A model generated the notes under the pieces. It made no database searches. It was given only the letters and a program-made list of their open reading frames with translations, and was not told the origin of the DNA. A stretch of 64,000 nt of DNA from Eledone cirrhosa. Taxonomy: Eukaryota. This document shows positions 41,622 through 42,046 of the stretch, piece after piece. Positions within the stretch are counted from its first letter, which is position 1. Every line of letters begins with the position of its first letter. Position numbers and translations under genes: made by a program. The stretch covers positions 198,462,001 through 198,526,000 of the forward strand of contig OZ024743.1 of the NCBI GenBank assembly GCA_964016885.1, in the 5' to 3' direction.

Positions 41622-42046
41622 AGTTAAAAGTGTACATCTACATATGTATACTGAAATACTAGTATGCATATAAATACACACATGTATACATATGTACATG
41701 TACTGAGTTTTTCACTGGACACTTTACTGTGAGTGTCCAGCTAGTCTGTATGTAACCAAACAGACAAACCGGGTTTTAGAGTCATACGGGTTTTCAAGGA
41801 AACACATTTCCTCTATTCTCCAGAGAGCCAGACAGGAATATTGGACTAGTTTCGATGTTATTACATCTCATCAGCAATAATAACCCATCTTCCGGCTTCT
41901 CTAGAACATGTGTGTATTTATATGCATACTAGTATTTCAGTATACATATGTAGATGTACACTTTTAACTTAATTGTTTAAGCGTCAGTCATACAAAAGTG
42001 AGTTAGAAGCGAAACGAAATTTAATTTCGTTTCGTTATTTGTTTTT
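41622..42046. mobile_element. Hammerhead-bearing element, subfamily C (diverged relative of family B), fold-back arrangement
   Basis: Inverted arms 41622-41685/41906-41969; collinear with B1/B2; TA-flanked. Confidence 0.8.
41839..41879 (-). ncRNA. Canonical minimal type I hammerhead ribozyme (GUC site)
   Basis: TATTG-CTGATGA-GATGT-AATA-ACATC-GAAA-CTAG-TC-CAATA: perfect stems I and II, full core, palindromic ACTAGT stem III. Confidence 0.9.

Follow-up and report, generated by a model that had tools for sequence, protein, structure and literature searches.

Three hammerhead-bearing repeats, B1, B2 and C, lie in a 64,000-nt stretch of Eledone cirrhosa DNA (the window, that is, the whole stretch analysed), and they raise the question of whether their RNAs share a fold beyond the ribozyme and, if so, what that fold is for. 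An earlier note on the window had claimed extensive covariation across the three and suggested selection on a multi-branched RNA, perhaps for recognition by a reverse transcriptase (RT) or for circle stability. Our analysis identifies B1, B2 and C as copies of one metazoan non-LTR retrozyme superfamily, protein-free and carrying a type I hammerhead. This class of repeat is already known and the fold is supported; we infer on good grounds that it has a role in RT start-site choice. We read the loci as high-copy retrozyme copies whose conserved fold is likely a landing structure for the RT of a resident Penelope-like element (PLE) at two sites, X and Y, on a probably circular RNA (probability roughly 0.75).

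The hammerhead pattern has 23,414 exact matches genome-wide, against none in a reversed control. Searches of the 3.0-Gb host genome with C, B1 and B2 returned 1821, 2560 and 2676 first-look candidates, 40 of which were scored for each (95-100% identity), and the copies are dispersed across many contigs. (AT)n repeats are abundant in this genome, and the repeat search of the window was dominated by microsatellites. From these copies we extracted 34 distinct full units of 424-515 nt, which form six subfamilies (B1-B3 and C1-C3) and stand in arrays of 1 to about 32 units (about 32 on C1). B and C are colinear, with 203 of 528 columns invariant in 13 units and 60-64% identity outside an AT block; with the hammerhead core and the AT block removed, their alignment scores 118 compared with at most 34 in 300 shuffles, and we take them as homologues. 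Protein-coding capacity is absent, the only frames being low-complexity ones from flanking or internal (AT)n that overlap the loci; lacking an RT or endonuclease frame, the units are not autonomous PLEs.

The core and stems I-III are present in every extracted unit; all six subfamilies retain the catalytic core and the loop II pattern, and their stems I and II covary. The Rfam model HH9 gives C1 copies in L008 28.8-32.9 bits, under its gathering score of 52, and in the window Rfam has no match at gathering score and, at E-value level, only sub-threshold HH9 and AT-repeat noise. A GUU triplet in B1, C2 and C3 and a mismatched stem II base in B may slow cleavage. A three-base bulge in stem I of C1 (unit positions 96-98) is hypervariable, with eight forms in 39 contexts among copies otherwise 98.5% identical. 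It varies between units of one insertion (L007, L008 and L026, with four forms in the four units of L008:1000-2030) and was not seen in B or C2/C3; one guess is that it is an error-prone or modified site.

When B1, B2, B3, C1, C2 and C3 are each folded alone as a circle, the same branching results. The order is P1 (an octamer hairpin), P2 (a TATA hairpin), P3 (the distal extension of stem I), the hammerhead and P4 (hairpin 1), followed by the 8-bp helix P5, whose arms lie about 160-210 nt apart and enclose P6, P7 (hairpin 2), the AT-rich arm P8 and the small hairpin P9. The fold ends with helix P10, which encloses the palindrome P11 and the GC-rich hairpin P12. Without the AT block, five of five consensus units fold 4.9-12.6 SD below dinucleotide shuffles (30 each). 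The hammerhead strand folds more stably in four of the five, with B1 equal on both strands.

A hammerhead scan of the window located the named motifs at B1, B2 and C, and found at each B locus a second motif on the opposite strand. The C insertion is not a single linear unit; it consists of two head-to-head arms inside (AT)n, with the following parts:

41622..42048, both arms: whole C1 insertion, L002 in the locus set
41622..41905, minus strand: inverted arm of C, unit positions 73-356, its 3' end (41622) at the upstream fixed site X
41715..41740, minus strand: hairpin 2 (P7)
41744..41765, minus strand: hairpin P6, within the P5 domain, absent from the earlier list of helices
41780..41787, minus strand: 5' arm of the long-range 8-bp helix P5
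41797..41812, minus strand: hairpin 1 (P4)
41820..41832, minus strand: 3' arm of P3, the distal stem I extension, with two-sided changes between B and C and between C1 and C3
41839..41879, minus strand: type I hammerhead of C, with stem I, core, stem II (5 bp) and palindromic stem III
41891..41904, minus strand: 5' arm of P3, the distal stem I extension, previously overlooked
41906..42048, plus strand: direct arm of C, unit positions 293-435, its 3' end (42048) at the downstream fixed site Y
41968..41981, plus strand: small hairpin P9, which holds site X in intact units
41986..41993, plus strand: 3' arm of P5, in the tail between X and Y
42010..42034, plus strand: palindromic hairpin P11, in the tail, 14 nt before Y

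The hammerhead of C is predicted to cut after GUC, between 41844 and 41843 on the minus strand. The locus is incomplete, with one hammerhead and no promoter block, and is therefore predicted to be incapable of giving unit-length RNA. Its minus arm (hammerhead, hairpin 1, 5' arm of P5, P6 and hairpin 2) folds at z -4.4, the plus arm holds the 3' arm of P5 and the palindrome, and 64 bases of AT-rich block are present in both. The same P5 8-mer occurs twice on one strand, at 41780 and 41986. Since the two P5 arms of C thus lie on opposite strands, no transcript of this locus can form the long-range pair, and C-type P5 pairs only in intact 471-nt units elsewhere (L001 and L008). Inverted repeats flank C at 41510-41590 and 42205-42290, which suggests that it was inserted into the (AT)n middle of an inverted element older than itself. 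Another hammerhead-like element, with a near-perfect palindrome centred near 42505, occupies 42190-42700.

The B-type features of the window are as follows:

27160..27315, minus strand: short B-type 3' fragment, tail region
32203..33016, both arms: B1 insertion, inverted arm 32203-32353 and direct arm 32356-33016 (1.6 units), the latter ending at Y
32340 (minus strand) and 32719 (plus strand): starts of the B1 hammerhead cores
32631..32641, plus strand: octamer-containing block of B1, then a TATA-like palindrome; resembles the host -78 element of U6, U6atac and RNase MRP
54698..55015, minus strand: further truncated B-type copy
56071..57194, both arms: B2 insertion, inverted arm ending at Y (56071) and direct arm ending at X (about 57184-57194)
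56457 (minus strand) and 56905 (plus strand): starts of the B2 hammerhead cores, with octamer blocks at 56535-56545 (minus strand) and 56817 (plus strand)

Set against this anatomy, the pairings first listed fare unevenly. Compensated pairing in stems I and II holds, but these stems are the hammerhead itself and not something beyond it. Hairpin 1 is present in B1 and C, yet B1 and B2 differ there by two one-sided changes to G-U, without compensation. Hairpin 2 is likewise found in B1 and C; the perfect B2 form that had been quoted is the inverted copy, whereas the direct copy and the B2 consensus carry one G-U. The long-range helix has its B1 arms at 32803 and 32973 as described, but the C arms are on opposite strands in the window, and in B2 the direct arm stops before the 3' arm, the quoted partner having come from the inverted arm. 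The palindrome is kept, with one two-sided change, but it is not terminal in the unit.

Whether the pairs outside the hammerhead have changed in a coordinated way was examined across subfamilies. RNAalifold on a sequence-only alignment gave two-sided change in 23 of 92 pairs. With the structure taken from one C1 row or one B2 row, and the hammerhead and AT block removed, two-sided pairs numbered 16 of 97 and 19 of 78, against 1-8 and 1-7 in slid controls. Because such controls ignore kinship or favour the source row, the observed substitutions were instead re-placed randomly among like bases (3000 draws). From B1 to B2, outside the hammerhead and AT block, there are six two-sided changes compared with 0.9 expected, a count reached by 0 of 3000 draws, though two of the six are in P6, where the register is ambiguous (one under a loop-aligned register). 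Five pairs are broken compared with 15.5 expected, which no draw reached. From B2 to B3 two changes are two-sided (0.3 expected, P 0.02). Within clade C the two-sided changes under this null number 0-1 and are non-significant; C1 to C2 and C1 to C3 break two pairs compared with 9-11 expected.

Between B and C, alignment A1 gives 11, 12, 6, 12, 8 and 11 two-sided changes in six comparisons, compared with about 5 expected (P 0.008, 0.004, 0.32, 0.002, 0.12 and 0.005), and broken pairs are below expectation in all six (P at most 0.0013). The statistics are weaker in a sequence-only global alignment of consensus units, which mis-registers B against C in the 3' part; there, two-sided change is significant in two of four comparisons (P 0.40, 0.02, 0.86 and 0.008). 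A hand table of 61 pairs in ten helices, fitted manually, with cells that are not independent and omitting P1, P8, P12 and B3 for P7, holds 37 invariant pairs, 19 two-sided, four one-sided and one only broken. In P5, three of eight pairs are two-sided and 99% of cells are paired. P1, P9 and the P10 core show no covariation in any comparison. Support for a conserved multi-branched fold outside the hammerhead is therefore good in the aggregate and strongest for P3, P5 and P7; as there are two deep clades and only about six lineages, no single pair is provable. The covariation was overstated as 'extensive', given so few lineages, 37 of 61 hand-listed pairs invariant and a significance for B versus C that varies with the alignment.

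The neutral control consisted of 286 copy fragments, in which rare changes do not distinguish paired positions (377 of 35,275) from unpaired ones (317 of 33,242). Selection acts on the templates that found subfamilies, and inserted copies decay neutrally afterwards. Matching arms might also arise from correction of inverted repeats, at the DNA level or by RT template switching, with no selection on RNA structure. Short-loop inverted repeats are known to be perfected in this way, and most of the helices here are of that type; moreover, 22 of the 377 rare copy changes are two-sided and B1 folds equally on both strands. Yet three two-sided changes fall in P5, with its distant arms; G-U intermediates occur in P3, P4, P7 and P11; the non-Watson-Crick cells of the hand table, read on the hammerhead strand, are 16 G-U, two A-C and eight other; and rare copy changes mostly break the pair (243 of 377, with 134 keeping it). 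Correction is on these grounds improbable, and selection on an RNA fold of the hammerhead strand is the reading we retain.

What this fold may serve is suggested by the ends of the insertions. The arm 3' ends of all subfamilies are at two homologous sites flanking the 3' arm of P5. Site X is in the small hairpin P9, 7-12 nt before that arm, and site Y is in the unpaired linker after P11. With windows defined from the same B/C data and each covering 2-3% of the unit, X or Y is the end point of 146 of 172 arms; the loci were taken as best or first matches, with queries that spanned the hammerhead. The 106 distinct insertions uncut by a locus edge divide into 53 two-armed, all head-to-head, and 53 single-armed, with none tail-to-tail. 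Among the two-armed, 35 have one X and one Y end, none X+X, none Y+Y, six X with another end, nine Y with another end and three two other ends; for C alone, X+Y accounts for 15 of 17. Ends at X or Y abut AT repeats in 119 of 134 cases versus 5 of 25 for other ends, and target duplications of 11-15 bp are found at a few non-repeat sites (L013, L018 and L058). The tail between X and Y measures 51-70 nt in B/C. These two fixed ends likely mark where a PLE-type enzyme starts copying the RNA beside the conserved fold, and, as they adjoin the long-range helix, they lend independent support to the early guess of RT recognition.

Twin priming also yields head-to-head arms, so a LINE-type RT could be imagined to move the repeat, or it could be satellite DNA spread by recombination, for which the arrays of up to about 32 units might speak. 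Either seems very remote, because poly(A) and a single fixed 3' end are absent, either arm can be longer while both end at fixed sites, and the copies are dispersed. The same pattern is seen, moreover, in the genome's own elements with RT and GIY-YIG domains: the two-armed insertions L201, L203, L209 and L207 likewise have two fixed end points, again in (AT)n. Published descriptions of PLEs give as hallmarks inverted arms, partial tandems, (TA)n targets and a tail confined to one end (PMC8557442, PMC3846280). In PMC11167929 both strands of AT-rich DNA are cut by a PLE protein, which begins reverse transcription at two internal positions, one on either side of the genomic tail. As its arms, fixed ends and AT targets resemble those of the resident PLEs and agree with the published start sites, the repeat carries a PLE signature.

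A looser hammerhead pattern, with 20,906 matches compared with 3,600 in the control for the whole pattern, revealed a further family, D. It is very young, with a 310-nt unit, arms of up to 10 identical units and a one-sided tail of 34 nt (G000:C1:1238600-1245600; L263-L272 and L281). At the 11 loci fetched, nine of nine two-armed insertions have one X-type and one Y-type end, and the X-type site precedes the 3' arm of a predicted 8-bp long-range helix by 8 nt, so that the predicted layout round X and Y is that of B/C. In five insertions, 51 of 53 units are identical to the most frequent unit of the insertion that holds them, and the insertions differ among themselves. The predicted fold of family D is more stable on the opposite strand, and the octamer block described below was not found in it. 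Homology of D to B/C was considered and is not shown, its best score being reached by 1 of 200 shuffles and the others by 3-31 of 200. An older hammerhead family, at L273 (G000:C1:11891189), has a different stem III palindrome and an octamer block 105 nt upstream of the core.

The main benefit of the fold could instead be a stable circle, its ligation or evasion of RNA surveillance, with the ends set by short sequence matches to the AT-rich target. The letters at the ends of X and Y are indeed AT-rich in both cases and blend into the (AT)n target, helices that covary (P2, P3, P4, P6 and P7) are in large part far from either site, and retrozyme circles in general are predicted to be highly self-paired, as described in PMC7229834. 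Far longer AT-rich stretches such as the P8 block seldom hold ends, however, the great majority of arms ending in the two windows, and X keeps its distance of 7-12 nt from a P5-type 3' arm in B1, B2, B3, C and D, with X and Y 34-70 nt apart. Nor can microhomology alone explain 44 X+Y insertions with zero like pairs. We therefore find this explanation rather doubtful, and prefer a fold that positions the RT at X and Y.

The form of the template is approached through the units themselves. Of 146 arms, none starts 4 nt or less from the hammerhead cut, and no clustering of 5' ends emerged either there or at the predicted transcription start. The cut site is crossed by 122 of 146 arms, 21 of them more than once, although crossing is inflated by the hammerhead-spanning queries. 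In several C1 insertions (for example L023, L028, L020 and L026) private variants are common to all units of both arms, and the units of family D are likewise alike within an insertion. A single circle copied repeatedly from the two DNA ends would produce this uniformity, as would a homogeneous multimer left uncut. The C unit is also spanned by contigs from two sequencing runs whose kind is not stated, one of them circling round; a DNA tandem gives the same, so these contigs do not bear on expression.

A template consisting of the uncleaved linear read-through transcript of a tandem locus, with a hammerhead dispensable for mobility, would accord with the weak stem III and GUU triplets, with the units that differ at one bulge within three C1 insertions, and with uncleaved RNA being the main PLE substrate in vitro (PMC11167929). 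It is nonetheless unlikely, for the core and loop II pattern persist in six subfamilies while stems I and II covary, and family D arms reach 10 units that are identical on both arms and different between insertions. Circles are, in addition, demonstrated for coral, mussel and axolotl retrozymes, as reported in PMC7229834, so a circular template probably applies here as well.

Upstream of the hammerhead, every B and C unit has a TATA-like stretch and an octamer block that does not vary among the six subfamilies, although family D lacks this block; the B2/B3 form of the block has 10,992 matches genome-wide and none in the control. The same 12-13 nt block stands at about -78, with a TATA at -30, in three distinct U6 upstream types, one U6atac and one MRP gene; other U6 and U6atac matches lack it and appear to be retrocopies or rearranged copies. 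It was not seen in four U2 upstream regions, so a match of Pol II snRNA type was not found. The element-to-TATA distance is 43-44 in the repeat versus 47-49 in the five host genes and thus departs from host spacing, and T5-T7 runs inside some units would stop Pol III short of unit length unless read through. The lack of covariation in P1 is as expected of a DNA element. From these motifs, we give about even odds to a working internal promoter in the units. The host genes of Pol III snRNA type (L091, L092, L093, L226 and L232) have a compact promoter, with an octamer-like 13-mer at -78, a TATA at -30 and little conserved in between.

The following course of events would account for the insertions. 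A tandem locus would be transcribed, possibly from the octamer-plus-TATA block of each unit, a motif that is present and whose activity is putative. Paired hammerheads with palindromic stem III, also present as motifs, would release single units from the multimer, which a host ligase would then circularize, as cleavage and circles in other retrozymes suggest. A PLE endonuclease, the presumed enzyme, would cut both strands of AT-rich DNA, whereupon one DNA end would prime at X (loop P9) and the other at Y (the linker after P11), the positions at which the ends are observed. Both copies would then run round the template for up to several units, presumably by rolling circle, and be joined head-to-head as in the anatomy of the insertions.

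A more far-reaching proposal, which we put forward tentatively and with somewhat less than even confidence, is that the retrozymes here are minimal PLE parasites: a circle with a U6-like promoter, a hammerhead and a covarying scaffold, formed by the long-range helix and the tail hairpin, that would give X and Y to the halves of a PLE dimer, one for each DNA strand, so that a single circle would be copied in both directions into one insertion. The enzyme would read the scaffold rather than the sequence, because the unrelated 310-nt family D has the same layout.

Candidate helpers were sought in the same genome with GIY-YIG as the screen for the PLE endonuclease. Of 10,596 candidate RT and GIY-YIG elements 150 were scored, and nine of 12 frames scanned have both domains at E 0.01. 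Some open frames span 844-1096 codons, with a CX4CxxC linker in L197-L199, a linker that PMC8557442 describes as assigned to the Neptune and Nematis clades. One PLE frame compared with solved structures gave no match. Among 46 GIY-YIG loci (from the 150 scored of 10,596), with repeat copies inserted near them set aside, none has more than a 30-nt likeness to the repeat at E 0.3 and none emerged as a helper with a common tail, and a short motif likeness between PLE tails and repeat tails was judged too weak. In the PLE hammerheads of L166, L184, L189, L195 and L197 the core is altered, with T as its first base and a shortened motif, and stem III is palindromic; several of the tails in their downstream regions share a short motif just after site X. 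The window itself holds, at 31720-31930 and 270 bases from B1, a 3' fragment of a PLE of autonomous type (L196/L197 family); its hammerhead core is a variant one, and it ends at its own Y site in (AT)n.

With the metazoan non-LTR retrozymes described in PMC7229834 and PMC7761336 the repeat shares protein-free tandem units and one type I hammerhead per unit, and, according to PMC7229834, a low GC content, copy numbers in the thousands, a genome that also holds PLEs, a predicted high degree of self-pairing and, as in amphibian retrozymes, a weak palindromic stem III. Its units are of 424-515 nt compared with the 150-450 described for that class. In the account of PMC7761336 no conserved motif of retrozymes hints at a helper, and promoters seem to be missing; unlike that description, the repeat shows two fixed ends, a covarying scaffold and an octamer-plus-TATA block. 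EN+ PLEs, of Neptune/Nematis type as described in PMC8557442 and PMC3846280 and anole Poseidon as described in PMC11167929, share with it head-to-head arms, partial tandems, a one-end tail, (AT)n targets, a type I hammerhead upstream of the tail and two internal starts. They differ in being coding and in a tail of 30-40 nt in those papers compared with 51-70 nt here (34 in D), and the repeat has no sequence match to sampled PLE terminal repeats of the same genome. The anole PLE protein in vitro shows no strand difference in start site (PMC11167929), whereas the two arms here never share a site.

A partnership of retrozymes with PLEs has been proposed from co-occurrence and terminal-repeat likeness (PMC7229834, bioRxiv 10.64898/2026.07.22.740005). 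The latter presents vertebrate retrozymes as non-autonomous PLE derivatives, the same partnership as proposed here; its argument, in the text from abstract to discussion, rests on co-occurrence and pLTR similarity in vertebrates, leaves invertebrates open and contains no insertion-end or covariation analysis of the kind given here. Newt satellite 2 and a schistosome satellite, as cited in PMC2220036, are hammerhead repeats with an internal snRNA-type promoter, the counterpart of which is putative here. The newt promoter is cited there as Pol II, whereas the present block resembles host Pol III genes (U6, U6atac and MRP) and not U2, although its spacing to the TATA is 4-6 bp shorter than in those genes and its promoter role is putative. 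Non-autonomous Chlamys elements, described in PMC8557442 from algae, form tandem insertions without canonical hammerheads. Our literature search met no paper on the B/C family, on retrozyme covariation outside the hammerhead or on PLE tails in retrozymes, although subscription papers, repeat databases and supplements could contain such work, and cephalopod retrozymes or structures may appear in the supplements of PMC7229834 and bioRxiv 10.64898/2026.07.22.740005.

Reviews state as open what moves animal retrozymes and what the mover recognizes. Here start sites can be read at single-base resolution from tens of thousands of young copies that bear the tail signature of PLEs, and the neighbouring helices come with natural compensatory variants, which are ready-made mutants for an in vitro test with a 450-nt substrate and candidate helper frames from the same genome. 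The observations bear on how PLE enzymes, relatives of telomerase, choose an internal template and serve both DNA ends. The strict rule of one X and one Y, with a template shared by both arms, extends the single in vitro study of a PLE.

Other elements of the window deserve brief mention. A further small hammerhead-like repeat occurs at 5540-5670 and 55690-55830, head-to-head and ending in (TA)n, and is also found near the PLE loci L201, L203 and L208. Elsewhere in the genome, a U6 copy (L104) continues at its 3' end directly into sequence that resembles the 3' terminus of this small repeat at window position 5650, possibly as a template-switch chimera. Finally, the window has at 12535-13540 two frames that, judged by eye, we take to resemble a decayed transposase of pogo/Tigger type.
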